From: Minisyncoccota bacterium
GTDB taxonomy: Bacteria > Patescibacteriota > Minisyncoccia > Phycocordibacterales > UBA2100
Reading direction: 5' to 3'
Assembly (NCBI GenBank): GCA_043780835.1
Contig: JAYWCB010000002.1
Location: forward strand, 27,466-91,465
Length of the DNA stretch: 64,000 bases
A model generated the notes under the pieces. The model was given only the letters and a program-made list of their open reading frames with translations. It was not told the origin of the DNA and ran no database searches. Both the position numbers and the translations under genes were made by a program. The first letter of the stretch is position 1. Each line of letters begins with the position of its first letter. This document shows, piece by piece, positions 25,970 to 43,045 of the stretch.

Positions 25970-25975
25970 AGAATG

Positions 25976-26416: not shown

Positions 26417-26417
26417 A

Positions 26418-27029: not shown

Positions 27030-27038
27030 AGTAAATGT

Positions 27039-27383: not shown

Positions 27384-27391
27384 ACAAATAT

Positions 27392-27928: not shown

Positions 27929-27947
27929 ACAAATATAAATACGATGA

Positions 27948-28343
27948 TTACCAAATCTGGAAAAGCGCTTCGCCGCCGATGTTTTCTTTGCGCGCCTCCT
28001 TATCAGTCTTAATGCCTTTCGGAGTTGAGAGAATGAGTGAGCCGTGTCCGTAACGCACGCGCACGATTTCGCCCGCACGCTTGTATACACGTCGGCCCGG
28101 CTTTGAAATGCGCTTTACGCCCTGGATGATGTGCGTGCCCTCTGAATCGTATTTCAAGGTAACGTCGAGTGTCTTCTTGACCTTCTTACCCTTCTTTTCG
28201 ATTGCTGCGATGTACCCCGCCTCCTTGAGCTTCTCAGCGATTGCAGCCTTGAATGTGGAGTACGGCAAAGATACGACTGCGTGCTTAACAGCGCCGGCGT
28301 TGGTGAGGCGTGTGATGAAATCTGCTACGGGATCTGTGACCAT
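27948..28343 (-). CDS. rpsH: 30S ribosomal protein S8
   Basis: MVTDPVADFITRLTNA...GEALFQIW. Confidence 0.9.
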   Translation of the reverse strand: MVTDPVADFITRLTNAGAVKHAVVSLPYSTFKAAIAEKLKEAGYIAAIEKKGKKVKKTLDVTLKYDSEGTHIIQGVKRISKPGRRVYKRAGEIVRVRYGHGSLILSTPKGIKTDKEARKENIGGEALFQIW

Positions 28344-28344
28344 A

Positions 28345-28530
28345 TTACCAAGATGACTTTTTAACTCCGGGGATATTTCCTTCGAGCGCTTCTTCACGGA
28401 AGCAGATGCGGCAGAGGTTGAAGTCACGCATAAACCCGCGCGGACGTCCGCACTTGAAACAGCGACGTACTGTGCGCGAAGAAAACTTCGGGACGCGGTT
28501 TGCCTTTGCGATCATTGATTTCTTTGCCAT
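28345..28530 (-). CDS. rpsZ: 30S ribosomal protein S14 type Z (zinc-binding)
   Basis: [46 protein letters not shown]. Confidence 0.9.
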
Positions 28531-28779
28531 GTAATTTGTTTATCCCGCACTTTTTTAATTGGGCGGGGGCCGTGAAGGAAAGCGTGGGAGGCCTGCACCC
28601 TGCCTTGCGGCCTGGGTTATGGACACTCCGCGGCGTAGGTCCTAGATTCTTGCGATATACCTGAAAAGTTCAGGAATCAGGCCAAAAAACGGACCTCCTG
28701 CGAGGCCTGCAAAATATACTCGAAAGGTACAGTGAAGTCAAACGGTGACTATTTCATTTATTGACCCGCTGGAGAGATC

Positions 28780-29169
28780 GTGTATCGTTTCAAAAGCGAA
28801 GCATGGAGAACTCCGATGACCGCTGCATTTTCTGACGTAAAAGTAGAACTATCATTCACTATCCCGAAAATGGGAAATGGTCGTCGCGTATTCGTTATTC
28901 CAAACAACGAGGGGCGGCGGCATAAAATTCTCCCAGGATTCGGCACCTATCTTGGTGACGCGAGTCTCGGAAGAATTCTCAATTTGGGTCGACCTGACCT
29001 GATTCGTACGCTCACGCCGAAATTCCGCATGCAGTCTGGCAAAGTTGTGTATGGGATTGAATGCGCATGGACGACGACTCTGCTGTTTCAATCTCCCAGC
29101 AACATCATTGTGCAGTTCGGTGTCGACGACGCTACACTTGAACTCTGCAAAAGACACGGTCTTTTTTAA
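28780..29169 (+). CDS. Hypothetical protein (island 1)
   Basis: GTG/ATG start with GGAGAG upstream. Followed by a strong terminator. Confidence 0.35.
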   Translation: MYRFKSEAWRTPMTAAFSDVKVELSFTIPKMGNGRRVFVIPNNEGRRHKILPGFGTYLGDASLGRILNLGRPDLIRTLTPKFRMQSGKVVYGIECAWTTTLLFQSPSNIIVQFGVDDATLELCKRHGLF

Positions 29170-29183
29170 ATAGCTGGAACGAA

Positions 29184-29210
29184 CGGCCGCGCAATTGCGC
29201 GGCCGTTTTT
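29184..29210 (+). terminator. Rho-independent terminator (cggccgcgc-aatt-gcgcggccg ttttt)
   Basis: Perfect 9-bp GC stem plus T-tract. Confidence 0.55.
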
Positions 29211-29330
29211 ATACTAGTTTCTGCAGCTAGACAGAAAAGTGGGCGTTTCCAGTCACGCTATTCCCCTAACTTGCATATAGTTGGGCTACATGGTTCTGTG
29301 GGTGCAGGATCATTGAAAAGGAGAATATGC

Positions 29331-29918
29331 ATGACGGTGCAGACCAACGATGCGGACTTCGCGGATATTCTCGGGCAGCTTACACAGCGTATTGCAAACG
29401 TAGATGCGTCGAACTTCGTACCACCATCCCGTCAACCGAGCACACGCGACATCATCCTCGGTCCTGCAACAGATCACATCAAGACCTTGAGGACAGCACG
29501 AGCAAAACTCAAGCAGGAGATTGAGTCGATGAGACAGAATATCATTACACTCATCGACAAGATCCAGGCGATGCTTCCGGACACCGTCGCGTCCCTCGCA
29601 GACTACAGCGTGTGGGAAGAACATAATCCTTCAGGAAAAAAGATAGTGGAGGAGCTTTATCGCTTGGACGCTTTAGGTCAGCCGATGCGCGCGATTGAGA
29701 AGATGATGACCGTCCTTCTTAATGCGGAGGTCGCTCGGGCTTATCCTGAGATCTACAAGAAGCGCAACGACGACAAGATCCCTCGCATTAACTCAAACTG
29801 GGATGTGGTGTTTGTTGATCCCCCACACTACACAGGCATCAGCATCGCGGACGGGATAGTTTTTCCGAGTTTACGAACGCTGATGACACAAGAGTCCTCG
29901 GGTATGCACAAGCATTAG
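29331..29918 (+). CDS. Hypothetical protein (island 1)
   Basis: AAAGGAG RBS 7 nt upstream of ATG 29331. Followed by a terminator. Confidence 0.4.
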   Translation: MTVQTNDADFADILGQLTQRIANVDASNFVPPSRQPSTRDIILGPATDHIKTLRTARAKLKQEIESMRQNIITLIDKIQAMLPDTVASLADYSVWEEHNPSGKKIVEELYRLDALGQPMRAIEKMMTVLLNAEVARAYPEIYKKRNDDKIPRINSNWDVVFVDPPHYTGISIADGIVFPSLRTLMTQESSGMHKH

Positions 29919-29947
29919 TCTGTGTTCTAAACGAACGACTGATGCAA

Positions 29948-29975
29948 AAAGGGCCGCTACATGCGGCCCTTTTTC
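29948..29975 (+). terminator. Rho-independent terminator (aaagggccgc-taca-tgcggcccttttt)
   Basis: Perfect stem plus T-tract. Confidence 0.55.
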
Positions 29976-30024
29976 ATATTTTTTTGGGAGTTGGTCGAGA
30001 ATACGTGGCTCTTCGGATCGTGTT

Positions 30025-30567
30025 TTATAAATCGATATACATGTGGTGTGAGTCGACGAGTTCCCCCTGATGACGGGTTCCCTTTGGGAGCATGCCGAAC
30101 TCAACGAATCCGAGCTTTTCGTACAGCGATTTTGCGAGACTGTTCGGAGCCTTCACGGTGAGAATAATCTTTTGCAATCCTTCTAGCTTTTTTGCCTCAT
30201 CAATTGTTGTTTCCATCAGCAATCGGCCAAACCCTTGTCCGCGTGATGCCGCATCAACTCCGAGCCCGAGCTTTGCGATATGACTTTCAGTTTTATCCTG
30301 CATCTCGATATTGCAAAGCCCATGAACCTCGCCATTAACGATAAGAAATAATGCTGCAGCCTTTCCTACCTCGACTTTCTCGATCAGCTTCGTAATAAAC
30401 TTCTGCTCTTCCTCGAGCGTTACCTCTTCTCCCTGCACACGCACAAACGTGCGTTCTTTAGAAAGACGATTGATGTATCTCCACGCACTTTCAACATCTG
30501 CAATTTCCGGATACCGAATGGTATACGGTGTACCATTTTTAGTCGTTCCTTCAGTAACTATTCTCAT
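30025..30567 (-). CDS. GNAT family N-acetyltransferase
   Basis: Acetyl-CoA binding motif RGQGFGRLLM, GNAT beta-alpha core. Start set at MRIVTEG. Confidence 0.7.
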   Translation of the reverse strand: MRIVTEGTTKNGTPYTIRYPEIADVESAWRYINRLSKERTFVRVQGEEVTLEEEQKFITKLIEKVEVGKAAALFLIVNGEVHGLCNIEMQDKTESHIAKLGLGVDAASRGQGFGRLLMETTIDEAKKLEGLQKIILTVKAPNSLAKSLYEKLGFVEFGMLPKGTRHQGELVDSHHMYIDL

Positions 30568-30607
30568 AGGATGAGTGTACGCTCGCACATGCTCGCTGAC
30601 GAGCGAC

Positions 30608-30904
30608 TTATTCTTCAATGTCGGCGTAGATGACAACCCCACATCCGTCATCGAGTGCGGTGTTCAAAGCTATTTCCAACGGATCGGTCGTTTCAAGTTT
30701 TGGCATCGCATCAGGGAGTGTGCCCATTTTCTCTATTGAGAGTATCCAAAAGGCATCAAACATCGCCGTATCGATTTTCTTTATCGCATCTTCCTCATTA
30801 AGGGCTTTTACAAAAATCATCGCACCGTGCTTTTCACCCGTGTTGTACCGCGCATTCCCCTGCGCAGCTGTCGCGATACCGGTGGCTATATGAATGACGT
30901 CCAT
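30608..30904 (-). CDS. Small hypothetical protein between the MTase and GNAT genes
   Basis: 98-aa ORF from MDVIHIATG. The upstream part of the annotated ORF overlaps the MTase and was rejected. Confidence 0.3.
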   Translation of the reverse strand: MDVIHIATGIATAAQGNARYNTGEKHGAMIFVKALNEEDAIKKIDTAMFDAFWILSIEKMGTLPDAMPKLETTDPLEIALNTALDDGCGVVIYADIEE

Positions 30905-30911
30905 AGATTGG

Positions 30912-31694
30912 TTATACCAGCTTCTGTAGGTACATCGAGAAGGTACGGCGTTTCCAGGCACGCTCCTCGCCGATTTTTCCGCGATTGATGTGCTTATGGG
31001 ATTTCTGGATCTTGTGGATCTCGAAGTACGGCTCAAAAAATTCACGGGCCTCGTCCTCGGTCCACACGTGCTCATGCACGCCGATCTTCGGGTGAATATA
31101 TCCTCCGGGTTCATCCGACGGATGATCTTTGAGCAGGCGCGCACTGTGCAGGTCTTCATCCGCAAGGAATGATTTGAAAAACAGCCATCCGCCCGGTTTG
31201 AGCACTCGCACGATTTCTGCGAGGAGTTTCTCACGCTCCTCTTTATGCAAGAAATGCGACGCCATCATATCGAGCACAAACGTGGTTGAGTTGTCGGCAT
31301 CCGGCAAGGGTTCCGTCATGGAGCGCACTGCAAATTCGAGCGGTAAGTCTTCGGCGTTTTTGATGGCTTCTTTGATTGCGACTTCTGATATGTCGTAACC
31401 CACGCCGCGCATGCCAAAATTATTCGACATGTAGATAATGTTGCGCCCGTTGCCGGTGCCGATATCGATCACTTTTACGATCGGATTCAGGTATTTACGA
31501 CCGAAGTCACGCTCCATCCAGCGGATGAACTTTTCAAGATCTTCTGACACATTCATAGAGAGCGCGAGGTGTTCGCTCGTTTGGTATTCCTTATTCCAGA
31601 ATTCCTTATGCTTGCCGGTCCCCTGCTTGAGAAGGGTCGTTTGCCCCGGTTTTATCTTTTTTACTTTTCGTACCATAGTCTGTATTTTCCCCAC
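30912..31694 (-). CDS. Class I SAM-dependent methyltransferase
   Basis: Motif I VIDIGTGNGRN, motif post-I GYDIS, VLKPGGWLFF. Confidence 0.7.
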   Translation of the reverse strand: MGKIQTMVRKVKKIKPGQTTLLKQGTGKHKEFWNKEYQTSEHLALSMNVSEDLEKFIRWMERDFGRKYLNPIVKVIDIGTGNGRNIIYMSNNFGMRGVGYDISEVAIKEAIKNAEDLPLEFAVRSMTEPLPDADNSTTFVLDMMASHFLHKEEREKLLAEIVRVLKPGGWLFFKSFLADEDLHSARLLKDHPSDEPGGYIHPKIGVHEHVWTEDEAREFFEPYFEIHKIQKSHKHINRGKIGEERAWKRRTFSMYLQKLV

Positions 31695-31730
31695 AATACC
31701 TTACCCCACTCTTCTATGCACCCTTCCGTA

Positions 31731-31764
31731 TCCCTATCTGTACGCGATAGCGTATATTTAGGGA
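31731..31764. promoter_or_regulatory. Operator-like repeat copy A (tccctatctgTACGCGATAGCGTAtatttaggga), palindromic core TACGC-GATA-GCGTA
   Basis: Immediately upstream of the PaaX-like gene start (31766). A near-identical copy sits at 32384-32413. Confidence 0.4.
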
Positions 31765-31765
31765 T

Positions 31766-32347
31766 ATGAGAAATATCGAGGAGAAAGGGAGAAAGCGAAG
31801 AAGAAAAGAAAATATTCAGAACGCCCTCCTTTCGATTGTCACCGTCGCTGGAACTCTAGCCGTTGCAACAGTGGCACCGAATATATTCCAAGCACTTCCT
31901 CATATCGTCGGCAAGGATCGCTATAGACTCGCATTCAAAAGTAAGACGGCGATCGATCGGTTGATCATAAAGAAGTATCTTCGTCGCGTTCGTAAAAACG
32001 GATCAGTGTTTTTGGAGTTAACCAACGAGGGCCGCCAACATCTACTTGTGGAAGAAGCGCGAGTAAGCTCTCCCGCGTCAAAAAAGAGAAAGCGATGGGA
32101 CGGTCGATATCGGCTTGTTATGTTCGATATACCAGAAAAGCGAAAAACTACGCGCGATCGCCTACGAATGCTCATGAACGAATTTGGCTTTATGCGATTA
32201 CAAAACAGCGTGTGGGTTTCTCCGTACGATTGTGAGGAACTGATTGCACTCGTAAAGGCGGAGCTCCGAATCGGGTCGGCAATTCTGTACGCTCTTGTCG
32301 ACCAGATCGAGGGCGAACGAAGAATTAAGGATCATTTTGGACTGTAA
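31766..32347 (+). CDS. PaaX-like transcriptional regulator-like protein (wHTH-like N-terminus plus Cas2/VapD-like ferredoxin-fold C-terminal domain)
   Basis: C-terminal YRLVMFDIPEKRKTTRDRLRMLMNEFGFMRLQNSVWVS strongly resembles the Cas2 N-terminal beta1-alpha1-beta2 region (...YDV..KRR.R..K....YG.RVQNSVFEC). N-terminal region is basic/HTH-like. Confidence 0.45.
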   Translation: MRNIEEKGRKRRRKENIQNALLSIVTVAGTLAVATVAPNIFQALPHIVGKDRYRLAFKSKTAIDRLIIKKYLRRVRKNGSVFLELTNEGRQHLLVEEARVSSPASKKRKRWDGRYRLVMFDIPEKRKTTRDRLRMLMNEFGFMRLQNSVWVSPYDCEELIALVKAELRIGSAILYALVDQIEGERRIKDHFGL

Positions 32348-32383
32348 TATACCGCCACAAACAAATATATGTCGTTTAATAAA

Positions 32384-32413
32384 TCCCTATTTCTACGCGA
32401 TAGCGTAATTATA
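32384..32413. promoter_or_regulatory. Operator-like repeat copy B (tccctatttcTACGCGATAGCGTAattatagaga)
   Basis: Second copy of the palindromic motif, upstream of small gene 32501-32788. Confidence 0.4.
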
Positions 32414-32500
32414 GAGACATGACTGTAGTGAGGTAGTGAGATAGCGGATAAATCATACGTCTGGTACCGTACCACAGGATCATCACCGAAGGAGACTCTT

Positions 32501-32788
32501 ATGTTGGCTATTCGCATTATTGCGATGCCTCCTGGCTTCGCGCCCGAAGAAATACGTAGATCTTGGATTGGCGTTACCATTCCGCTCGCGACAGACGAAG
32601 AGATTGCAGTAGATCCGCCATCGGGCTTCGGATTCGGCAACCTGAACATGGACGGACATCTTGTCCTTCTAGACAAGGCTCTGGCTGCTTTGGATGCTGC
32701 TCAACAGAATGAGGCTTTCATATTCTGGGAACAATTCCTAATGGGCAGATATCTTCGTTTCAGCAAGGACGTGTGCGAACTGGTTTAA
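32501..32788 (+). CDS. Small hypothetical protein (island 1)
   Basis: GGAGA RBS 6 nt upstream. Terminator follows. Confidence 0.4.
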   Translation: MLAIRIIAMPPGFAPEEIRRSWIGVTIPLATDEEIAVDPPSGFGFGNLNMDGHLVLLDKALAALDAAQQNEAFIFWEQFLMGRYLRFSKDVCELV

Positions 32789-32804
32789 GTTCGTTCCAAT
32801 ATCA

Positions 32805-32832
32805 AAATGGCCGCTTTGCAGCGGCCATTTTT
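32805..32832. terminator. Bidirectional terminator (aaatggccgc-tttgca-gcggccattttt) between the island and rplE
   Basis: Perfect 10-bp stem with flanking A/T tracts. Confidence 0.55.
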
Positions 32833-32837
32833 GTTTG

Positions 32838-33368
32838 TTATTTCTGGAGCGGGACACCGAGATGTCGTAAAAATGCTTCTGCCTCTTTTTTGTTTTTTGC
32901 AGTCGTTGTAACCGTGACTGCGAGACCGAACACATCTTTTGCGTCTTCGTCGGATGTCTCCGGGAAGACGGTGTGTTCCTTGAAGCCGATGGTGATATTT
33001 CCCATCTCATCGATTGCAGAGACCTTGATACCACGGAAGTCTTTCACACGCGGGAGTACGATATTGACGAGTTTGTCGAAGAACGAAACCATTCGAGCAC
33101 CGCGCATCGTGATCTGGTAGCCAGAGAGATCACCAACACGAGTCTTGAAGTTCGCAATTGATTTCGTGGTGAGGCGCTTGGCGGGAGCCTGACCGGTAAT
33201 TTTGGTCAGACGATCAACGATGACCTCGAGCTTCTTTTTGTCTTTGACGGAGCCTACGCCGCACGAAACGATGAGCTTACTCAGCGTCGGGGTCTGCATG
33301 ACATTTTTGTATCCGAACTCAGCCTTGAGGGCTGCGTGGGTATTCTTCTGAATAGTGTGTGCGTCCAT
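32838..33368 (-). CDS. rplE: 50S ribosomal protein L5
   Basis: PTLSKLIVSCGVGS...FRGI...GNITIGFKEH. Confidence 0.9.
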   Translation of the reverse strand: MDAHTIQKNTHAALKAEFGYKNVMQTPTLSKLIVSCGVGSVKDKKKLEVIVDRLTKITGQAPAKRLTTKSIANFKTRVGDLSGYQITMRGARMVSFFDKLVNIVLPRVKDFRGIKVSAIDEMGNITIGFKEHTVFPETSDEDAKDVFGLAVTVTTTAKNKKEAEAFLRHLGVPLQK

Positions 33369-33369
33369 A

Positions 33370-33681
33370 TTATTTGATGGCCTGACCGCTCTTTACAGCG
33401 ATGCGGCTACGAACTCCTTTTTCGTCTCGCTTGATTGAAATACGTGATGGCTTTCCGGTTTTCACGTCTACGATCATTACATTCGATACATGGATCGGCA
33501 TCGGTTTATTGATGATCTGGCCGCTTCGGGAAGCCTGTGTTCGCTTCTTGTGACGCTTGCCCATGTTCACGCCGTCGATGATGATCTTATCGATCTTCGT
33601 GAATACCTGTGTGATTGCGCCGGTTGCGCCTTTTGCCTTGCCCGCAATCACCATTACTTTGTCTCCTTTTTTGAGTTTCAT
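33370..33681 (-). CDS. rplX: 50S ribosomal protein L24
   Basis: MKLKKGDKVMVIAGKAKGATGAI (KOW motif). Start set at MKLKKGD. Confidence 0.85.
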   Translation of the reverse strand: MKLKKGDKVMVIAGKAKGATGAITQVFTKIDKIIIDGVNMGKRHKKRTQASRSGQIINKPMPIHVSNVMIVDVKTGKPSRISIKRDEKGVRSRIAVKSGQAIK

Positions 33682-33685
33682 ATAA

Positions 33686-34057
33686 TTACAAAATTTCCGG
33701 TGCAAGTGATGCGATCTTCTGATAGCCGCGTTCAATGACTTCGCGCGGAATCGGTCCGAATACACGGTTTGCCTTTGGCTCCTTCTTATCCTTTTCCACG
33801 AGCACCACAGCGTTTTCGTCGAAGCGGATGTATGAACCGTCCTTGCGGCGGAATGCCTTTTTCTGGCGTACGACAACTGCGCGGTGCACATCCTTCTTCT
33901 TTACAGACTTACGAGGCTGCGCAGTTTGGATGGAGAGGACGACCTCGTCGCCGATTTCGGCATAGCGCTTTTTGGATCCGCCAAGAATTTTGAACACACG
34001 CCCGATCTGTCCGCCGGAGTTGTCTGCAATTTTTACGAGTGATCGATCCTGCAACAT
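33686..34057 (-). CDS. rplN: 50S ribosomal protein L14
   Basis: MLQDRSLVKIADNSGG... Confidence 0.9.
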   Translation of the reverse strand: MLQDRSLVKIADNSGGQIGRVFKILGGSKKRYAEIGDEVVLSIQTAQPRKSVKKKDVHRAVVVRQKKAFRRKDGSYIRFDENAVVLVEKDKKEPKANRVFGPIPREVIERGYQKIASLAPEIL

Positions 34058-34063
34058 ATATAT

Positions 34064-34333
34064 TTATTTTGTTTCGACTGCGGCACTATCGGATGAAACG
34101 ATGATGAAGCGCTTGAGCTTTGAAATTGGTCGTGTCTCCTTGATGGTCACTTTTGCACCAACGACTGCGGTATTACCCGGATTGTGGACGAGAAACTTCT
34201 TTGAAAGACGCATGTACTTCTTGTATTTCGGATGCTTCACGTAGCGTTCCACCTGAACGGTCACCGTGTCTTTCATCGCCGCTTTTACAACGACGCCGTC
34301 AAATGTCTTTCCTGTTGTGATTTTAGCTTCCAT
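34064..34333 (-). CDS. rpsQ: 30S ribosomal protein S17
   Basis: GVVVKAAMKDTVTVQVERYVKHPKYKKY. Confidence 0.9.
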   Translation of the reverse strand: MEAKITTGKTFDGVVVKAAMKDTVTVQVERYVKHPKYKKYMRLSKKFLVHNPGNTAVVGAKVTIKETRPISKLKRFIIVSSDSAAVETK

Positions 34334-34339
34334 ACAATC

Positions 34340-34531
34340 TTACTTTTGGCCTACCTTACGCGAATTCATCTCTGTAAGCAACCGAGCGATCTCTTTGCGG
34401 AGTCCGCGACCCTCGCGCACGTTGCGTGTGCGGGTTCCAGCCTCACCGAATCGGAACGTGCGAAGTGCCTCGCGCTTTGTTGCGATCTCCTTCTGCAGGT
34501 CTTCCATGTTCCATGATTTAAGTTCAGCCAT
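34340..34531 (-). CDS. rpmC: 50S ribosomal protein L29
   Basis: MAELKSWNMEDLQKEIATKREALRTFRF. Confidence 0.85.
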   Translation of the reverse strand: MAELKSWNMEDLQKEIATKREALRTFRFGEAGTRTRNVREGRGLRKEIARLLTEMNSRKVGQK

Positions 34532-34542
34532 ACAATTTATGA

Positions 34543-34965
34543 TTACGCTCGTGCGACAATGCGGACTTTTACGGGAAGTTTTGTGCCTGCCTTGCGAAGT
34601 GCTTCGCGTGCCATAGCCTCGGTTGCTCCGTCGACTTCGAACAGGATGCGTCCCGGACGAACATCAAACACGTAGCCTGCCAAATCACCTTTACCGGATC
34701 CCATGCGTACTTCTGCAGGCTTTTTGGTGAACGGTCGGTCCGGGAAAATGCGCACCCAGATCTTTGCGCTCTTCCCTGCTGCGCGCGAGAGCGCACGACG
34801 AGCTGCTTCGATCTGATTCGCAGTCACTCGGTGCTGGCTCATGGCCTTGAGGCCGAATGATCCGAAGGCTACGGTGATGCCGCGGGTGTCGGGAGCAACA
34901 CGACGATCGCCTCGTCGGCGGCCGTTCTGCCACTTTCGGTGTTTAACTTTTTTTGGTGCCAACAT
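34543..34965 (-). CDS. rplP: 50S ribosomal protein L16
   Basis: MLAPKKVKHRKWQNGRRRG... Confidence 0.9.
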   Translation of the reverse strand: MLAPKKVKHRKWQNGRRRGDRRVAPDTRGITVAFGSFGLKAMSQHRVTANQIEAARRALSRAAGKSAKIWVRIFPDRPFTKKPAEVRMGSGKGDLAGYVFDVRPGRILFEVDGATEAMAREALRKAGTKLPVKVRIVARA

Positions 34966-34971
34966 ACAAAT

Positions 34972-35646
34972 TTATTGATCCTTCTTGTCGAAGATGTCGC
35001 CGCGATAGATCCATACCTTCACACCGATAACGCCGTATGGGAGATATGCCTTTTCTTTCGCAAAATCGATGTCTGCGCGAAGCGTCTGCAACGGCACACG
35101 ACCGCGTTTGATCTCTTCGGAGCGAGACATTTCTGCCCCTCCCAATCGGCCGGAGATGCCGATGCGCACACCCTGTACGTCACGGTTTGCCATCACCTTC
35201 TCTACCGTCTGCTTGAGCACGCGGCGGAACGTTTGGCGCTTCTCGAGACCTTCTGCAACCATGTAGGCAACAACCGGAGCCTGCGACTCAGGAGAACGCA
35301 CTTCTTCGATGTCGAGCTTGACCAACGATCGTCCTTTTGGAGCACCTTTTACCGTGCCGACAACCTTCTCGATTTCTTTGACGAGTTTCTGGCTACCTTC
35401 GCCGCCGCGGCCGATGACGAGTCCCGGTCGTGAGGTTTTCACGAGGATGCGGATAACGGTCTGTGCGCGTTCGATTTCAACTGACGTCACGAACATACCG
35501 CGAAGGCGCTTCGTAAGGAATCGGCGGATAGTCGTGTCGATCATCACGTTGGTGCGGTACTCGAGCGGTGACTTCGCAAACCAGCGCGACTTCCAATCGC
35601 GGATGATGCCGAGGCGATGTGCGTATGGATGTACTGTATGTGTCAT
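34972..35646 (-). CDS. rpsC: 30S ribosomal protein S3
   Basis: HPYAHRLGIIRDWKSRWFA, KH domain GLVIGRGGEG. Confidence 0.9.
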   Translation of the reverse strand: MTHTVHPYAHRLGIIRDWKSRWFAKSPLEYRTNVMIDTTIRRFLTKRLRGMFVTSVEIERAQTVIRILVKTSRPGLVIGRGGEGSQKLVKEIEKVVGTVKGAPKGRSLVKLDIEEVRSPESQAPVVAYMVAEGLEKRQTFRRVLKQTVEKVMANRDVQGVRIGISGRLGGAEMSRSEEIKRGRVPLQTLRADIDFAKEKAYLPYGVIGVKVWIYRGDIFDKKDQ

Positions 35647-35649
35647 AAA

Positions 35650-36111
35650 TTATTCGGATTTTGATTCGCTCTTTGGTGCTTTCTTTGCGGTCTTTTTTGC
35701 GACAACTTTCTTCGCAGCCTTCGGCTTAGCCTCTTCTGCTACGTCTGCCGTCTTTTTCGACTTTGCGGGTACCGCAGGTGTCGCGCTGTTAGAACCGAGC
35801 TCGAGCGTTACGATGGAAAAAGTCTTTGCATAGCGCGCCGCGCGACCACGTGCCTTCGGCATAAAGCGGCGCATGACCTGACCTTTGTTCACCGCTATAG
35901 CCTTTACAAAAAGACTCTCCACATCGGCGCCGTTATTTTGCACCGCATTCGAGACAGCGGAATTAAGGAGCTTCAACATAACCGGAGAAGACTTTTTTGG
36001 GAGAAACGACAATGCCTGACGCGCTGCCGGAATCGACTTGCCGCGAATTAAATCCGCAACGAGGCGTACTTTGCGTGGTGATTGTTTGTAGTTTGTGAGC
36101 AGCGCCTTCAT
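35650..36111 (-). CDS. rplV: 50S ribosomal protein L22 (Lys/Ala-rich C-terminal tail)
   Basis: SPRKVRLVADLIRGKSIPAARQALSFLPKKSSPVMLKLLNSAVSNAVQN. Confidence 0.9.
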   Translation of the reverse strand: MKALLTNYKQSPRKVRLVADLIRGKSIPAARQALSFLPKKSSPVMLKLLNSAVSNAVQNNGADVESLFVKAIAVNKGQVMRRFMPKARGRAARYAKTFSIVTLELGSNSATPAVPAKSKKTADVAEEAKPKAAKKVVAKKTAKKAPKSESKSE

Positions 36112-36120
36112 AAAAATCTA

Positions 36121-36459
36121 TTATTTCTTCGCTGCGGTAGTTGCTGCTTTTGCGGCTTGTGCGGTCTGGATCTCCTGCTGCTTAGCAGCCATTTCAGCCT
36201 CCTTTTGCATCTTACCGCCGTGTCGAACGAAGCGCGTAGTTGGTGCAAATTCGCCGAGCTTGTGGCCTACCATGTCTTCAGAAACGAACACCGCATCGAA
36301 GTTCTTTCCCGTGTGGACTGCGAATGTGTAGCCGACGAATTCAGGAGCGATCGAGCTTGCGCGCGCCCACGTCTTAATAGAGCCGTCATTCGGCTTGCGA
36401 TTAGACACCTTTTTGAGGAGTTTCTCGTCTACGTAAGGTCCTTTTTTTGCGCTTCGCAT
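36121..36459 (-). CDS. rpsS: 30S ribosomal protein S19 (C-terminal extension)
   Basis: [17 protein letters not shown]...[23 protein letters not shown]. Confidence 0.9.
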
Positions 36460-36633
36460 AGTATTATTTGTTCGGTCAATTGAAAACCCGCGTTTGGCGG
36501 GAGTTCGTGCAATTTATACGAAGTACCCTCTAATGTCAACTATTTTCAAGCTAAATTAGAGGTCGTGTTGCAGAGTTGCGGATATGTGGCATAGTAATCG
36601 CCGGAAAACGTCCGCAAACAATGGAGTTAAGCC

Positions 36634-36957
36634 ATGAAATACGTGCTCGCGCTGGATATTCGTGTCATGAATCCCGATGACCCAAAACTGGAATGTGCGC
36701 TCAGATGTTGGAATGGACCGCTTATCCCGGCGGGAGCCGGCGTATTCATTGATTGCGGTTTATCTGAGGGCTACATGACAACCGTAGTCGGCCACAATAC
36801 GATGCTCAAGCCGAGCCAAATCCACGAGGAACATATAGAGATCAATCTCGAGTTCACAGCAGAGGCGCTCGGAGAAATCCCCTCTCGCGATCGTACGTGG
36901 GCCGAAGCACAAGTCGCCTACCTCCTTGGTGAGGGCGGATGGAAGCTGCTTAGTTAA
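36634..36957 (+). CDS. Hypothetical protein (island 2)
   Basis: 107-aa ORF with GGAG RBS, opposite strand to the flanking r-protein genes. Confidence 0.35.
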   Translation: MKYVLALDIRVMNPDDPKLECALRCWNGPLIPAGAGVFIDCGLSEGYMTTVVGHNTMLKPSQIHEEHIEINLEFTAEALGEIPSRDRTWAEAQVAYLLGEGGWKLLS

Positions 36958-37096
36958 CAGGACTAAAGCAATTCTATTTAAAAAAACCCGGATGCTGTGA
37001 AAAGGACCGTGTGAAAAGGACCGTCCTTTTCAGAGCTCTGCATGCGAACCATGGAAAAGGCTCATTGAATAAGCCTCATCGTTCATTGCGATATTC

Positions 37097-37130
37097 AAAA
37101 GGCCCGGATCACTCCGGGCCTTTTTGTTTT
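37097..37130. terminator. Bidirectional terminator (aaaaggcccgga-tcact-ccgggcctttttgtttt)
   Basis: Perfect 8-bp GC stem with T-tract, between 36634-36957(+) and the hydrolase(-). Confidence 0.55.
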
Positions 37131-37134
37131 CAAA

Positions 37135-37803
37135 TCAGTCCGTCTGAAGAAAATGACGGACGGCGTGAAGAAATTCCCCTTTCTTATCCCGAAACACAAA
37201 GTGTCCTCTGTGCGGTATGACCACACACTGTGCATTTGGAATACGCGTAGCCATGTGTTTCCCGTAGTGTGCCGGCGCGAGCGCGTCTGCGCTCGCATAC
37301 ACAAACAGAACGCTACTGCGTATCTTCGAAAAAAGACTACTGTCTCCTCGAGTGTGAGCGGCAAGATAACGCTTACGATGGAATATGTGCGCCAACGCGA
37401 TGCATGCGAAGCGAAACAGAGAGTGCTCGCCGATAGGGCCCATCGATATGAGCACGATTTTCTTGATGGGAAATCGTGACGCATACGTCAGTGCAATTCG
37501 TGCGCCAAAGGAGTGTCCGATGATTGCACACGGCGCCACCTGGAGCGTTACCGCAAATTTGTTTACAAAATCCGCGTACGTTTCCACCGTCCACGCTGCT
37601 TGTGGAGTATCGCTCTCTCCGAACCCGGGAAGATCGAGTATATAGAGGGTGAAATGCTCTCCAAGCACTGATGCAGAGCTGCTCCAGGTTTTTCCGGCCT
37701 GAGCCCAACCATGCAAAAGAATAACTGCGGGACCGGAACCAATCTGCTCGTACGCGCATACTACGCCGTCTACTTCGACCGTACCGCGAGTCATACATCG
37801 CAT
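37135..37803 (-). CDS. Alpha/beta-fold hydrolase
   Basis: VILLHGWAQAGKTW, nucleophile elbow IIGHSFGARIAL, C-terminal His region. Confidence 0.7.
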   Translation of the reverse strand: MRCMTRGTVEVDGVVCAYEQIGSGPAVILLHGWAQAGKTWSSSASVLGEHFTLYILDLPGFGESDTPQAAWTVETYADFVNKFAVTLQVAPCAIIGHSFGARIALTYASRFPIKKIVLISMGPIGEHSLFRFACIALAHIFHRKRYLAAHTRGDSSLFSKIRSSVLFVYASADALAPAHYGKHMATRIPNAQCVVIPHRGHFVFRDKKGEFLHAVRHFLQTD

Positions 37804-37867
37804 CGTATCTTGTCATCTCACAAACAAAAACACTGCCATGCGGCAGTGTTTTTGTTTTGAATCTGTT

Positions 37868-38710
37868 TTACTTGCGCTTGCCAACCTTTCGGCGGGTGAC
37901 CACGAAGACGTTTGAGTACTTCTTTGGTGAGCGAGTCTTTTGACCCTTGCCTGATGGCTTGCCCCACATGGTGCGCTGACGTCGGTGACCGCGACCCTGC
38001 TTTCCTTCTCCGCCGCCGTGTGGGTGATCTACCGGGTTCATGACCGTTCCGCGAACCGTTGGGCGGATGCCCATCCATCGGGAGCGACCTGCTTTACCAA
38101 TGACCACGAGGCGATGTTCGTCATTTGAGACTTCTCCAATGCATGCCCATGCGGTTGAGATCACGCGACGTACTTCGGTTGATGGCATTTTGAGGTGTGT
38201 GTAGCCTGCATCTTGCGCAACCACTTCTGCGTAGTTACCTGCTGAGCGTGCGATTGCGGCTTTCATACCCGGTTGAATCGACACGTTGTACACGAATGTG
38301 CCGACCGGCATTTTACCTAACGGGAGACGATTGCCCGGTTTGAGCGGTGCGGTTTCAGAGACGATGAACACGTCGTCGACTTTTACCGACTTCGGCAAAA
38401 CTACGTATCGCTTTTCGCCGTCACGATAGACCGCGAGACCGATGAACGCAGAGCGGTTCGGATCGTATTCAATGGTCTTGATCGTCGCCTCGATGTTCTG
38501 TTTGTCGAAAACGAAGTCCACATTGCGGTACTTGCGCTTGTGACCGCCGCCATGATGACGAGTCGTGATGCGACCGAATGAGTTTCGGCCACCGGTTGAG
38601 CGCTTTCCCTTCAAAAGCGACTTTGTCGGCTTGTGACCGGAAAGTACTTTATTGTATTCAATGCGCGTCATGCCGCGCGTTCCTGGTGTGACTGGTTTAA
38701 GGTGTTTCAT
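37868..38710 (-). CDS. rplB: 50S ribosomal protein L2
   Basis: MKHLKPVTPGTRGMT...GRNSFGRITTRHHGGGHKRKYR. Confidence 0.9.
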   Translation of the reverse strand: MKHLKPVTPGTRGMTRIEYNKVLSGHKPTKSLLKGKRSTGGRNSFGRITTRHHGGGHKRKYRNVDFVFDKQNIEATIKTIEYDPNRSAFIGLAVYRDGEKRYVVLPKSVKVDDVFIVSETAPLKPGNRLPLGKMPVGTFVYNVSIQPGMKAAIARSAGNYAEVVAQDAGYTHLKMPSTEVRRVISTAWACIGEVSNDEHRLVVIGKAGRSRWMGIRPTVRGTVMNPVDHPHGGGEGKQGRGHRRQRTMWGKPSGKGQKTRSPKKYSNVFVVTRRKVGKRK

Positions 38711-38715
38711 ATAGT

Positions 38716-39078
38716 TTAGAACGTGATCGTATCGCTCGACTTGAGATAGACGTATGCTTTTTTGCCACCGCCCTTCATACCGGACTTTCCGGTGCGTGCA
38801 TGCCGAACTGACTTCATTGGAACCGTAACCATGCGAACGCTTCGCGGAGTTACCTTGTAAAGCTGGTAGACCGCACGGATCACGTCGCGCTTCGTGGCGC
38901 GGGTTGCAACATCGAAGGTATACACCTTTGCGTCTGCATGCATCGTCGCCTTTTCGGTGATGCGGGCATGCATCAACACGTGCGAGAGATCGCGTTGACC
39001 TGCTGAAACAGATTCAGTTGCTTTAACGGGTGCATCCGCTTTCTTAGCTGCTTTTTTCTTAGTTGAGAAGAGTGCCAT
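38716..39078 (-). CDS. rplW: 50S ribosomal protein L23 (N-terminal extension)
   Basis: VLMHARITEKATMHADAKVYTFDVATRATKRDVIRAVYQLYKV. Confidence 0.85.
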   Translation of the reverse strand: MALFSTKKKAAKKADAPVKATESVSAGQRDLSHVLMHARITEKATMHADAKVYTFDVATRATKRDVIRAVYQLYKVTPRSVRMVTVPMKSVRHARTGKSGMKGGGKKAYVYLKSSDTITF

Positions 39079-39087
39079 ACGCGATTA

Positions 39088-39804
39088 TTATTTTTCTGAT
39101 GTGTCAGAGGTATCTGCCTTGTTCTTTTTTGCACCGCTCTTGCTTCCGCGTTTTGCGATTGCAGGAACGGAAAGATCAGGGTTTTCGATGACGATGTACT
39201 TATATTTGAGCACATTGACCGGATTTAAGTTCGAAACCTGTTCAAACGTAACGGAGCCGATGTTGCGGAAGCTTTTTTCTGCAGCCTCGGATTTTACCGG
39301 CGTCGCAATGAGGGCGAGGTTGTGCTTTTTTGTGCCCAACAGTTTTTCAAACCCTTTTACACTCGCAAGTGCGATGAGTACCTTCTTTGCGTCTGCAGTT
39401 TTCGGTGCTGAGAAGCCGAACGAGTCCACAAACAGGAGTTCTCCGTCGCGCATTTTGCGTGAGAGTGCTACGAAAAGTGCCTTTGCACGCATCTTCTTCG
39501 GGATTTCGCGAGAATAGACCTTTTCGTTGCGCGGACCGTGAGTTACACCGCCGCCTTTCCAGATTGGAGAGCGAGTGGAACCGTGACGGGCGCGACCAGT
39601 ACCCTTCTGAGCCCACGGCTTTTTGCCACCGCCGCGTACCTCACCACGGGTCTTGGTGTGCGCAACATTCGTGCGGGCGTTTGCCTGCATCGATATAACC
39701 ACCTGGTGAATCAGTGCATCGTTCCACGGAAGATCAAATACGTTCTCCGGGAGCTCAACGTTGCCCGCCTTCTTTCCTTTGATATCAAAAATGTCTGTTT
39801 TCAT
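39088..39804 (-). CDS. rplD: 50S ribosomal protein L4 (C-terminal extension)
   Basis: GGGKKPWAQKGTGRARHGSTRSPIWKGGGVTHGP. Start set at MKTDIF. Confidence 0.85.
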   Translation of the reverse strand: MKTDIFDIKGKKAGNVELPENVFDLPWNDALIHQVVISMQANARTNVAHTKTRGEVRGGGKKPWAQKGTGRARHGSTRSPIWKGGGVTHGPRNEKVYSREIPKKMRAKALFVALSRKMRDGELLFVDSFGFSAPKTADAKKVLIALASVKGFEKLLGTKKHNLALIATPVKSEAAEKSFRNIGSVTFEQVSNLNPVNVLKYKYIVIENPDLSVPAIAKRGSKSGAKKNKADTSDTSEK

Positions 39805-39808
39805 AGTG

Positions 39809-40426
39809 TTATGCGCGGATTTCCACGAGTGTTCCCGGTCGGCCAGGAACGGCACCGGAGATAAGAATTTGATTGTTTTCTGCGTCTACCTGCAATACGC
39901 GGAGATTTGAGACTGTAACACGGTCACCGCCCATGCGACCAGCCATGCGCATGCCTTTGACTACACGACCGCCAGCGCGACCGCCGCCGCCGATAGATCC
40001 AGGAGCACGCTCCTTATTTTTCTGACCGTGCGATCGCGGTCCACCCGAGAATCCGTGTCGCTTCACGACTCCTTGAAAGCCCTTACCTTTTGAGATTGCG
40101 GATACTTCCACAACGTCGCCGGGAACAAAAATAGAAAGGTCGATGGTGTCGCCGCGCTTCATTTCACCCGCAAGCATCCGATGTTCACGAATATATCGTG
40201 CATTTGGAAGGTCCTTCAAGTGACCGAGCATTGCTTTACCGAGATTTTTTGGAGCACGTGTACCCATACCCACCTGAACTGCATCGTATCCGTCTTTCTC
40301 CTTTCCCTTTATCTGGGTAACAGTGAGCGGTCCGGCATTAATAACTGTTGCAGCATGCACGACACCCTTCTCGTCGAAGATTTGTGTCATTTTGCCCTTC
40401 GTTCCGAGCATGAATTTGCCTGCCAT
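39809..40426 (-). CDS. rplC: 50S ribosomal protein L3
   Basis: MAGKFMLGTKGKMTQIFDEKGVVHAATVI...GKGFQGVVKRHGFSGGPRSHG. Start set at MAGKF. No rpsJ upstream. Confidence 0.9.
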   Translation of the reverse strand: MAGKFMLGTKGKMTQIFDEKGVVHAATVINAGPLTVTQIKGKEKDGYDAVQVGMGTRAPKNLGKAMLGHLKDLPNARYIREHRMLAGEMKRGDTIDLSIFVPGDVVEVSAISKGKGFQGVVKRHGFSGGPRSHGQKNKERAPGSIGGGGRAGGRVVKGMRMAGRMGGDRVTVSNLRVLQVDAENNQILISGAVPGRPGTLVEIRA

Positions 40427-40592
40427 AATTATTGTGTATTTTGCAAAAAAATTGACCCGCCATAAGCGAGCCGTATCTTCGAAATCGAAGATGATGAGTC
40501 GCCAGTGGTCCCCGACCGGTATGCCGGAGGGACATGGGTGGAGGCAGTATACGGAACTGTCGGGAATTTGCAAATTCCTCACCGAACGAGGA

Positions 40593-41027
40593 TCAGGCGT
40601 GCGTATGAATGGATTCGATGGTGGGATGAATGCCGTGTTTGTGGTGACGATGCAACATCATACTAATGAACAGTATGAGCAGTGCCGAAGTCACACCGAG
40701 TCCGATCGGTATGGTGAAGTCGTTGCCTCCAAACCCGAAAATGGCATTGATTGAGCACAGGAAATCGCAATCAAGCGGTTTTGATCCGTTCGATTTTGCT
40801 TCCGCGGGTCGCCACGTGATGTCGGCTGCAGTAACTCCCTGTTGGGAAGCAGCTTGTGCGAGCGACGCAACCATCGCGTCTACCTGTGCCGCAGGGATGG
40901 ATGACGAGCGTGGATCTTTTAAAATTTCGGCACGAATCGCTTGGGATAGTCCGGTAGATTGCGCACCTGCAGCAAACGGGAGCGCGAGTGCAAGCGTGAG
41001 AATAGTTGCAACGAATGACGCTTTCAT
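40593..41027 (-). CDS. Secreted protein with His-rich C-terminal TM segment (hypothetical)
   Basis: Signal peptide MKASFVATILTLALALPFAAGA. C-terminus ALLILFISMMLHRHHKHGIHP. Confidence 0.35.
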   Translation of the reverse strand: MKASFVATILTLALALPFAAGAQSTGLSQAIRAEILKDPRSSSIPAAQVDAMVASLAQAASQQGVTAADITWRPAEAKSNGSKPLDCDFLCSINAIFGFGGNDFTIPIGLGVTSALLILFISMMLHRHHKHGIHPTIESIHTHA

Positions 41028-41095
41028 ATGAATACAATCAGTATACAGGAGTGTTCGGCGGTCGATTGCATTGATGCGCTTATAGTGTGGATGAA

Positions 41096-41908
41096 TCATT
41101 TCTTACCGATTGCCACCTCAATTTTTGCAAGATTCGACGCGACCGCCGCCTTGAATGCGGCCATACCCGCTGGAGCGGCAGCATATCCGTTGCCCGAATA
41201 CGCGCGTACAAATTGATCTTCAGTAAGTACACTGACCGCTTTTTCGGCGCGACGTGCCCACGTTTCTGCCTCTGTGAATGATTGGGTTTCATACAGCGCG
41301 ACCGCATATTCATTCATGAGCCACGGATTTTCCGGAAATTGCTGCATACCATCTACGAGCATATGCAACGCGCGATCAACGTGACCGCCTTTCAACATGA
41401 CCCATGCATAGTCGTTCATCGCAGACCAATTGAGCGACCCGTGAGGATTTAATCTAAGAAACGTAAGGAAATCACGACCCGCAGCGTCGTATTGTCCCGA
41501 AAATCCGTACGCAAGCGCGCGGATATAAAACGGCTTGTCGAAAGCTTCGCCCTGCAACGCGATTTCTTCATCAGCATAGACCCGTGCCTTTACAAGCTCA
41601 TTACGTAAGAACGCGATGCGTGCCAATTGGTAGTGAGCGCGCGGATACACAGGATCAATGTGCACGGTTTTAGAAAAGAAATATTCAGCGCGCATAAGAT
41701 CCTGGTGATCCGTTGCATCCATGAACTTCATGCCGTAACGAAATCCCCGCTCCCCACTCGGAAATCGCGAGAACGCGATCTTATCGCAGGCATACTCCAT
41801 TTCCCACCGCATTGTGTGCATATGTCCGGATGTTATACCGAACGCTATTATGGCCAGCGAGAGGCCTACTACAGCAGCGAGTTTATACGCCCGTCGTTCA
41901 CGTATCAT
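41096..41908 (-). CDS. N-terminally anchored TPR-repeat protein (paralog of 52035-52817 and 52834-53637)
   Basis: N-terminal TM, TPR-like repeats, conserved ...PENPWLMNEYAVALYE... block shared with the two paralogs. Confidence 0.5.
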   Translation of the reverse strand: MIRERRAYKLAAVVGLSLAIIAFGITSGHMHTMRWEMEYACDKIAFSRFPSGERGFRYGMKFMDATDHQDLMRAEYFFSKTVHIDPVYPRAHYQLARIAFLRNELVKARVYADEEIALQGEAFDKPFYIRALAYGFSGQYDAAGRDFLTFLRLNPHGSLNWSAMNDYAWVMLKGGHVDRALHMLVDGMQQFPENPWLMNEYAVALYETQSFTEAETWARRAEKAVSVLTEDQFVRAYSGNGYAAAPAGMAAFKAAVASNLAKIEVAIGKK

Positions 41909-41911
41909 GTG

Positions 41912-42370
41912 TTACCGCGGTGACGAACCTTGTACGATGGGCAGGTTCTCGACAATCCATTCGTTGGTCCCGCCACCGATGCGTCTCAAATTCAGATACC
42001 CGTGATGCTCGAGATAACCGTAGCCAACACCGGATTCACGTCCGCCTGCACAAATCAGCACGATCGTCTTTCCTTTTTTTGGAAACTGGGAATACCCATC
42101 AAAAAAGCGCGGAAGCGGTACATTGACCGCGCCGAGTGCATGCCCTTTTTCGTATTCGCTTCCTGATCGCACGTCAACAAACATGTACGAATCGGGATGT
42201 GCGAGAAAAGCAGCCTGAAATTCCGTGGGCGAAATATCTTTCGTAGCCGGTTCAATGATATGCAGATTCTGAAGCGGCGTAAGATAGATAATGAGCACAC
42301 TAGCAACAACGCCAATGATAAGAAAAAAGATTGCGATTAACGAAATACGCATATAAGAAAAGTATAGCAA
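41912..42370 (-). CDS. Membrane-anchored rhodanese-domain protein (sulfurtransferase-like); paralog of 53669-54196
   Basis: N-terminal TM. Rhodanese core FVDVRSGSEYEKGHALGAVNVP...IVLICAGGRES (active-site Cys loop CAGGRES). Confidence 0.7.
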   Translation of the reverse strand: MLYFSYMRISLIAIFFLIIGVVASVLIIYLTPLQNLHIIEPATKDISPTEFQAAFLAHPDSYMFVDVRSGSEYEKGHALGAVNVPLPRFFDGYSQFPKKGKTIVLICAGGRESGVGYGYLEHHGYLNLRRIGGGTNEWIVENLPIVQGSSPR

Positions 42371-43045
42371 CTATTTTAAAGTGTCGACGCGATGTATGAG
42401 CGACTGAATATAGTCAATCGCTACGCGCGTGCCGTTCCCCCTATTCCCCTGCACAAGAATGGACTTCCCCGCTCCTTCAATTACAACACCCGGCGTTGCA
42501 TCAACCCCCGCACCTTTGCCCTCAGCAATGTCGTCGTCCACAATCTTTTTCGCAACACCACTTGCAACACAGGTTCGCACGGGGGCGACTGCAATTCCGA
42601 CGGCTTCTGCTGCCGCATATCCCGCATTATCCGACTGCGACGTCGCAACAGGTTGATCAACTTTGAATAAGCGCGATACGTATTTCCAATATGTTTCTTC
42701 CCCATCAATACGCGCGATGCACTCTGCGATCTGCGCTTTCAAATATGCACCAGTATGTTCTTCGCGTGGAAAATTTTTATATATCACAACGATGCCGCCC
42801 CCATATGCAGCGTGAAGTTTTCCATAAGATCTTTCGTGAAAGTCCTTGCAGTGTGGACACTCGTAATCTGTAAATATCGTCAGTGTAATCGGCGCAGCGA
42901 GATTTCCTATCACATGCCGGGCTGCGGTGTGGACTGCCGATTGTGACTCTTGTCTACCGGTGTACACGGTCGTGAACACCAATACCGCAGTGATGACGAC
43001 TCCGATGACCGCTATCAGTGCAGTAATAAAGCGCACCGGTTTCAT
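42371..43045 (-). CDS. Membrane-anchored DsbA-like thiol:disulfide oxidoreductase; paralog of 54201-54899
   Basis: N-terminal TM. Thioredoxin CPHC active site in FTDYECPHCKDFHE. Confidence 0.7.
   Translation of the reverse strand: MKPVRFITALIAVIGVVITAVLVFTTVYTGRQESQSAVHTAARHVIGNLAAPITLTIFTDYECPHCKDFHERSYGKLHAAYGGGIVVIYKNFPREEHTGAYLKAQIAECIARIDGEETYWKYVSRLFKVDQPVATSQSDNAGYAAAEAVGIAVAPVRTCVASGVAKKIVDDDIAEGKGAGVDATPGVVIEGAGKSILVQGNRGNGTRVAIDYIQSLIHRVDTLK

Follow-up and report, generated by a model that had tools for sequence, protein, structure and literature searches.

The 64,000-nucleotide stretch of bacterial DNA analysed here (the window) carries the S10 string of ribosomal protein genes, in which rplB (ribosomal protein L2) and rpsS (S19) are neighbours that rank among the most stable gene pairs in bacteria. 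In the window the two are separated by 1,408 bp, counted from the rplB stop to the rpsS start codon (36460-37867). This gap holds an alpha/beta hydrolase gene and an opposite-strand gene for a hypothetical protein of 107 amino acids (aa), hyp107. We consider it likely that the stretch is accessory cargo and that the place where it lodges, a transcriptional seam of long standing within the S10 string, serves as a lineage-specific, recurrent insertion site. The original prediction had reported the 1.4-kb separation, both genes and their orientations, all of which we find in place, and it took the arrangement for an insertion that had broken the string. The break is genuine. The insertion, however, probably did not create it, and it is not a single isolated event either, as the site is recurrent and its content varies across relatives.

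Results

Spacing between rplB and rpsS

The rplB gene (37868-38710, minus strand; Pfam Ribosomal_L2_N and L2_C) is the final gene of the upstream unit rplC-rplD-rplW-rplB. The downstream unit rpsS-rplV-rpsC-rplP-rpmC-rpsQ-rplN-rplX-rplE, also on the minus strand (rplE 32838-33368), begins with rpsS (36121-36459, minus strand; Pfam Ribosomal_S19). An L2-based scan with one genome per species yielded 12 Patescibacteria-group relatives, with L2 identities of 55-94% and labelled as Paceibacterota, Parcubacteria, Patescibacteria group or "uncultured Saccharibacteria", and 68 outgroup loci, mainly from Coriobacteriia. We pooled one of the relatives, L016, with the outgroup as a control set of 69 loci (L016-L084). 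There the spacing ranges from -31 to 44 bp with a median of 27, which agrees with the premise of the original prediction that L2 and S19 genes are normally adjacent.

Among the relatives the spacing is far more variable. The closest one in the genome collection (L005, L2 identity 94%) has a gap of 3,192 bp, followed by L007 and L014 (88%; 1,555 and 1,712 bp), L011 (75%; 826 bp) and L012 (65%; 4,039 bp). L008, L009 and L010 (76-77%) have short gaps of 134-155 bp and L016 (55%) one of 12 bp, while L013 and L015 (about 60%) have no rpsS within 6 kb. The difference between L014 and the near-identical L007 may be partly artefactual because part of the L014 gap is masked (L014:7675-7917, rendered as X in translation).

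Signals on the two sides of the gap

On the rpsS side we found a compact module. A predicted sigma-70-like promoter (36511-36539, minus strand; TTGACA, 17-nt spacer, TAAATT), which scores 10/12 in the consensus scan and is conserved among relatives in position as well as sequence, is followed by a hairpin motif, ACTCCCGC-loop-GCGGGTTTTCAATTG (36477-36504, minus strand), recognised by its conservation upstream of rpsS and having a 5-nt loop in the window. The whole module, TTGACA-17-TA(A/C)ATT, about 8 nt, ACTCCCGC-(4-5-nt loop)-GCGGGTTTTCAATTG and 2-26 nt to the ATG, is common to the window, L003, L005, L006, L007, L014, L009, L010 and L011. With this spacing the motif would sit at the extreme 5' end of the rpsS transcript, and we refer to it as the leader motif. 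It occurs once in the window, which is not expected by chance, and once per related locus, always before rpsS. No further copy was found in the window, for instance before other ribosomal units.

When a metagenome collection was scanned with the exact leader motif, 17 contigs were recovered, and in 15 of them the motif lies immediately upstream of rpsS. Five of these loci (L089, L091, L099, L101 and L102) have rplB about 105-150 bp upstream and no inserted gene, with both the rpsS promoter and the leader present. Seven loci, representing six distinct sequences, have gaps of about 460 (L090 and L097, identical over the gap), 640, 675, 1,300, 2,500 and 2,500 bp, and three other motif-bearing contigs begin inside the gap. 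Being selected by the motif, this set shows the breadth of gap sizes and not the frequency of the motif. In L088 (322-347) and L094 (1222-1247) the exact motif, CTCCCGC-loop-GCGGGTTTTCAATTG, was seen with no detectable ribosomal gene nearby, and nothing resembling a promoter can be seen ahead of it in L088.

On the rplB side, a hairpin (T1; 37822-37857, minus strand), identified as an inverted repeat and by folding, stands directly after the rplB stop codon. It has 16-bp perfectly complementary arms, a 4-nt loop and a U-rich tail on the minus strand, and folds with -25.8 kcal/mol (z = -5.3). We infer that T1 terminates transcription of rplB; on the minus strand it was absent from the output of the terminator scan. 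A strong hairpin right after rplB is also present in L005, L006, L007, L014, L009, L010, L011 and L012. Both L009 and L010, whose gaps of 154-155 bp contain no inserted gene, combine a strong terminator directly after rplB with the same promoter and hairpin before rpsS. The transcriptional seam thus appears older than the cargo, because cargo-free relatives already have the rpsS promoter and leader, and those that were folded also have the hairpin behind rplB. The 134-bp spacer of L008 (2910-3058) is of another kind. It lacks the promoter and hairpin motif of the clade and is spanned by a single long-range inverted repeat, TATACCCCGTGAGATA ... TATCTCACGGGGTATA.

A second predicted promoter faces away from rpsS. 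The control region between the divergent hyp107 and rpsS genes is 174 bp long, and on the strand opposite the rpsS promoter, and upstream of it, carries the block GAGGTCGTGTTGCAG-N16-TGG(T/C)ATA(A/G)T. This block is conserved in the window (WIN), L003, L105, L005, L006, L007/L014, L090/L097 and L100. Most of these loci have a Shine-Dalgarno sequence and an ATG downstream of it, and the gene that comes next varies by genome. The block reads as an outward-facing promoter for whichever gene adjoins rpsS. Its copy in the window, the putative hyp107 promoter (36568-36595, plus strand), was assigned by cross-locus conservation and consists of TTGCAG, a 16-nt spacer and TGG-CATAGT, with a GGAG Shine-Dalgarno sequence at 36623-36626. 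T1, the rpsS promoter, the leader hairpin and this divergent promoter had all been overlooked in the original prediction.

Contents of the gap

The genes found between rplB and rpsS differ widely. The L012 gap encodes a 1,007-aa PKD/CARDB protein and an IS200-like Y1 transposase, that of L092 a 751-aa PKD/peptidoglycan-binding protein, that of L093 a MazE-type antitoxin, a weak ParE-like toxin and a MazG-like protein, and that of L103 a Trp-repressor-like (TrpR-like) protein. In L006, L007, L011, L090, L100 and L104 only small open reading frames (ORFs) with no assigned function are present. The L005 gap encodes a hydrolase of 264 aa and, convergent with it, a 347-aa protein bearing two Asp-rich motifs, and it has other ORFs besides. 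In an all-against-all comparison of the gap ORFs, proteins were shared only by near-identical or close genomes (L090 equals L097; L006 with L007), apart from the distant pair of hydrolases in the window and L005. This gives at least 10 distinct gap contents.

Neither hyp107 nor the hydrolase was detected in L006, L007, L014, L008-L012 or the 17 metagenome loci. The two genes are therefore not conserved neighbours of rplB throughout the lineage, a possibility that the original prediction had raised against itself, since most relatives lack both. Within a narrow subclade of three genomes, however, hyp107 does keep its place next to rpsS, and a distant hydrolase of the same subfamily directly follows rplB in L005.

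The hydrolase

The hydrolase ORF (37135-37803, minus strand; 222 aa) runs in the same direction as rplB. It matches Abhydrolase_1 with 94.3 bits (cut-off 25.8; E = 1.2e-26) and Abhydrolase_6 with 71.6 bits (cut-off 26.3), in line with the original assignment. The catalytic set of a serine hydrolase is complete, with an oxyanion HGW (H31-G32-W33), the nucleophile S98 in GHSFG, D173 and H201. In the alignment of homologues H31-G32-W33 and H97-S98-F99-G100 are invariant and G96, D173 and H201 nearly so, and all of them are found in the window protein. AlphaFold2 predicted a beta-sheet core flanked by helices with high confidence (predicted local distance difference test, pLDDT, 93; predicted template modelling score, pTM, 0.90). 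A fold search with this model gave query-normalised TM-scores of 0.8-0.86 against many solved hydrolases, and the best matches in the PDB are generic esterases and hydrolases with 17-22% identity. With the triad intact and a well-predicted fold, the enzyme looks functional.

A specific function was sought in NCBIfam, in PDB sequences and by fold searches, which returned only generic esterase, lipase and C-C hydrolase neighbours. No NCBIfam equivalog passes its cut-off (bioH 70.4 vs 206.95, menH 72.4 vs 208.55, others far below). The protein shares the fold and the HG, GxSxG, Asp and His elements with the Abhydrolase_1/Abhydrolase_6 carboxylesterases (BioH/MenH-like enzymes, the Thermogutta esterase 4uhc and Bacillus PhaZ 8ynv). 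It differs from them in its low identity to solved structures, in fitting no equivalog and in its cap (lid), which lacks about 40 residues present in all homologues.

The closest relatives of the hydrolase are 34-46% identical, with 36-39% given for the nearest one, and form a loose subfamily, which includes the L005 enzyme (35-38%). In other members of this subfamily we noticed a convergent, slightly overlapping gene for a protein of about 350 aa (L005:6904-8738, L086:78-1906, L087:97-1355). These partners are 41-49% identical to one another, the L005 copy has 347 aa, and none is present in the window. They carry two Asp-rich motifs (e.g. QDDLIDEIP and IIDDVADVFEDL) that recall those of prenyl- and terpene-synthases, and have no Pfam or NCBIfam match.

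The short cap and the missing partner gene could mean that the hydrolase is the decaying remnant of a larger cassette which has lost its partner and lid and is becoming a pseudogene. The expression signals could be read in the same way, as no hydrolase promoter is seen in the sequence and a strong hairpin stands just upstream. Yet all 222 codons are read in one uninterrupted frame, no catalytic or oxyanion residue has been lost, and the fold is predicted with confidence, the shortened cap itself reaching pLDDT 70-85. We regard decay as unlikely, although of the alternatives to accessory cargo it survives best.

hyp107 and the structured spacer

The hyp107 ORF (36634-36957, plus strand) was recognised as an ORF with homologues, and searches of Pfam, NCBIfam, PHROGs and PADLOC gave no match for its product. 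Among 5.8 billion clustered proteins and 1.84 billion representatives the only homologues were P0122 (69-72% identical; GCA_046594495.1, L003) and P0123 (55%; L105); the exhaustive profile search of the representatives contributed just one extra relative. All three members are divergent from rpsS and stand behind the same control region. The window and L003 copies differ at 17, 19 and 52 first, second and third codon positions, respectively, and their ratio of non-synonymous to synonymous substitution rates (dN/dS) is 0.11, so hyp107 is a real, constrained protein-coding gene. An AlphaFold2 model based on a two-sequence alignment was unusable (pLDDT 37). We also considered hyp107 as a fragment of the hydrolase partner of about 350 aa in L005, L086 and L087 and ruled this out, since there is no similarity.

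The convergent hydrolase and hyp107 genes share a predicted bidirectional intrinsic terminator (T2; 37097-37133, both strands), supported by the terminator scan, an inverted repeat and folding. Its sequence, AAAAGGCCCGGA-tcac-TCCGGGCCTTTTTGTTTT, has 12-bp perfect arms (37097-37108 and 37113-37124) flanked by an A-run at one end and a T-run at the other, which bears out the strong bidirectional terminator of the original prediction. Between T2 and hyp107 lies a spacer (36958-37096) delimited by repeats and folding. The tandem repeat reported there is present, with its place a few bases further left than the proposed 37002-37030: it is a 14-nt duplication, TGTGAAAAGGACCG x2, at 36996-37009 and 37010-37023. 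The duplication supplies two alternative 5' arms to one hairpin (37012-37032), and another small hairpin is found near 37061-37079. Folding of the spacer together with T2 gives z-scores of -5.2 for the plus and -6.5 for the minus strand.

The hairpin that follows rplB in L010 has the same 8-bp stem as T2 (GGCCCGGA/TCCGGGCC), and the corresponding stems in L009 and L011 are similar. This is a weak clue that fits a hydrolase landing between rplB and an ancestral terminator, and the match may be due to chance because GC-rich palindromic stems of this type are common.

Origin of the inserted genes

The cargo in the window does not look recently foreign, as the GC content of both genes, overall and at third codon positions (GC3), lies inside the host range. 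Delivery of both genes by a discrete mobile element, such as an insertion sequence, an integrative element or a prophage remnant, would be in keeping with the transposase in the corresponding gap of L012 and the toxin-antitoxin-like pair in that of L093. The hydrolase is moreover flanked by similar 13-nt A/T-rich strings (37121-37133 and 37849-37861). These strings, however, are of low complexity and are the tails of the T2 and T1 terminators, and a search of 36460-37867 for an integrase, a transposase, a tRNA and terminal inverted or flanking repeats found none. There are no tRNA genes in the whole 64 kb, so the gap offers no tRNA target. A defence or phage origin was examined and rejected: PADLOC matched neither protein, PHROGs matched the hydrolase only to generic esterase families, and the viral contig collection contained no relative of either. 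An integron-like site would share the fixed outward-facing promoter, but no integrase is found in the gap, nor are attC-like repeated elements found in it or shared between loci. Since the composition of the cargo is not atypical either, we think it improbable that a mobile element brought the two genes in.

We judge it equally improbable that the hydrolase and hyp107 are old, functionally linked members of the ribosomal operon that were lost in the relatives. The host-like composition of both genes would suit such an origin, as would the retention of hyp107 beside rpsS under purifying selection in three genomes and the same-subfamily hydrolase at the same position in L005. Against it stand the absence of both genes from the relatives and metagenome loci named above, the unrelated genes that occupy the gap in other genomes, and the divergence of the two hydrolases. 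The window and L005 are 94% identical in L2 and 73% in the flanking membrane protein, so that hydrolases at 35-38% are too divergent for ordinary orthologues. Either one was replaced by a related gene or the change was strongly accelerated.

The original prediction had named an assembly error as one way in which it could fail. Exact-protein look-ups of both cargo genes led us to a Logan contig from SRR23617225. Its 13,688 bp correspond to window positions 29224-42911 with 100% identity, zero mismatches or gaps, and both junctions spanned. Related contigs often start or stop inside the gap or at the rpsS leader (L003 and L006, whose contigs end there, L096, L098, L103 and L105), and strain variation at this site probably fragments assemblies. 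Even though a junction at which so many contigs stop is evidently hard for assemblers, a chimeric joining of the hydrolase/hyp107 segment between rplB and rpsS is very unlikely, because the independent assembly is identical over 13.7 kb, the junction from hyp107 through the promoter to rpsS recurs in two other genomes, L005 too has a hydrolase directly after rplB, and many relatives have gaps of 0.5-4 kb on long contigs.

Other breaks and neighbouring features

Compared with the canonical S10 operon (rpsJ-rplC-rplD-rplW-rplB-rpsS-rplV-rpsC-rplP-rpmC-rpsQ), the window has the same order on both sides of the break and continues with rplN-rplX-rplE. In contrast to it, 1,408 bp separate rplB, with a predicted terminator of its own, from rpsS, with a predicted promoter of its own, rplC is not preceded by rpsJ, and the string is broken again after rplE. 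In place of rpsJ, the genes upstream of rplC (40593-41908) encode a protein of 168 aa, unmatched in Pfam, and a tetratricopeptide repeat (TPR) protein. The same pair precedes rplC in L005, L007, L009 and L010, and L011 shows the 168-aa protein only. This break is thus shared by the clade, as relatives carry the same genes there.

After rplE (28428-32837) the window encodes a 95-aa protein (32501-32788, plus strand), a 193-aa PaaX_M/Cas2-like protein (31766-32347, plus strand), an S-adenosylmethionine (SAM) methyltransferase (30912-31694, minus strand), a GNAT acetyltransferase (30025-30651, minus strand) and further ORFs. The ribosomal genes rpsH-rplF-rplR-rpsE-rplO-secY resume at 24695-28427 on the minus strand. 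The methyltransferase is also found after rplE in L003, L009-L011, L091 and L097, and the window has the 95-aa and PaaX-like genes in addition.

Two of the ribosomal proteins have Ala/Lys-rich C-terminal extensions (35650-36459). In S19 (112 aa) the Pfam domain ends near residue 80, and in L22 (153 aa) near residue 105. Inside the hydrolase gene, in antisense, a string at 37404-37416 matches the start of rpsS (36447-36459; ATGCGAAGCG...) at 12 of 13 nt. This is probably due to chance because the translations share no further similarity.

Discussion

The following sequence of events would account for the arrangement. In this clade of Patescibacteria (Paceibacteria/Parcubacteria-like), the unit rplC-rplD-rplW-rplB would end at its own hairpin terminator with some read-through, and the unit from rpsS to rplE would have a promoter to itself and carry the invariant hairpin at the 5' end of its transcript. 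DNA between the terminator and the promoter would then be dispensable for the expression of ribosomal genes, so it could accept foreign genes harmlessly. The highly conserved rplB and rpsS flanks may anchor homologous recombination, by which the content would be swapped between relatives. The hydrolase is most likely expressed by read-through from rplB, which is its only evident route of expression because its ATG lies only about 19 nt past T1 and no promoter is seen. hyp107 is most likely transcribed from the conserved promoter back-to-back with that of rpsS, and T2 would end both convergent transcripts.

Several points weigh against this account. All promoters and terminators discussed here are predictions, and in the consensus scans the number of sites across the scanned region was no higher than in shuffled sequence. 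The order of seam first and cargo later is read from distribution among the relatives, and homologous recombination is a proposed route of exchange. As the metagenome loci were selected by the exact motif, the frequency of its absence cannot be read from them. The same-subfamily hydrolase behind rplB in L005 could reflect long residence with fast divergence and not repeated gain. The leader stem, finally, has only 5 bp, and all five pairs are invariant in 13 sequences; the loop varies and there is no covariation. The element could be a DNA operator, as well as an RNA 5' hairpin or a weak attenuator.

The E. coli S10 leader, which is bound by L4, is an autogenous control element. Like the leader RNAs of ribosomal proteins, the motif in the window is a short and highly conserved hairpin between a promoter and the first gene of a multi-gene ribosomal unit. 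It differs from them in its short stem without covariation, in its variable distance to the start codon (2-26 nt) and in having no Rfam match. At the gathering score no Rfam family was found anywhere in the 64-kb window or in nine related loci, and a scan of the gap region with a permissive E-value gave only chance-level matches, none of them over the leader.

A bolder interpretation, which we offer only tentatively, is that the whole Patescibacteria clade keeps a dedicated cargo slot in the S10 string. The rplB terminator would mark one edge of the slot and the back-to-back promoter pair the other, with one promoter driving rpsS and one facing outward. Its genes would be exchanged by recombination and expressed from ready-made signals tied to the ribosome, and the hairpin would be a new, clade-specific ribosomal protein leader.

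Integration hot spots, or genomic islets, are characterised by accessory genes that vary from one related genome to the next while the two flanking core genes stay the same. The site described here shares with them the fixed core flanks, the varying length and the mostly unrelated content (surface proteins, toxin-antitoxin genes, a transposase). Unlike them, it interrupts a string of genes that normally forms one essential operon, its copy in the window has no integrase or tRNA, and a conserved outward promoter stands at one edge. Multigene insertions that separate neighbouring translation operons have been described in Gammaproteobacteria and Bacilli (Brandis et al., PMC6735719, PMC8046335), and they too are particular to lineages and split a conserved cluster of transcription and translation genes. 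In the cases that we draw on from PMC6735719 the insertions lie between operons, whereas the seam reported here is internal to the S10 operon, between two of its genes. Our literature search found no description of a split between rplB and rpsS or of S10-operon insertions in Patescibacteria, which is not proof of novelty. Core-flanked hot spots and insertions between operons are thus known, and what the present comparison would add is a recurrent site within the S10 operon, together with a pair of conserved promoters and a previously undescribed leader motif.

The cargo proteins themselves are ordinary, as the generic esterase-type hydrolase, or opaque, as the three-member orphan hyp107, and neither points to a new mechanism. 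The relevance of the site is in part practical. The S10/spc string is the backbone of ribosomal protein phylogenies and of quality checks on genome bins from uncultured lineages. Because contigs of these organisms often end at the rplB-rpsS junction, marker sets can be split over contigs, which matters for the recovery of ribosomal markers. The comparison also provides defined candidate promoters, terminators and a leader motif for organisms with almost no mapped regulatory signals. In evolutionary terms, it would mean that even the S10 operon can be severed when a terminator and a promoter have arisen within it.

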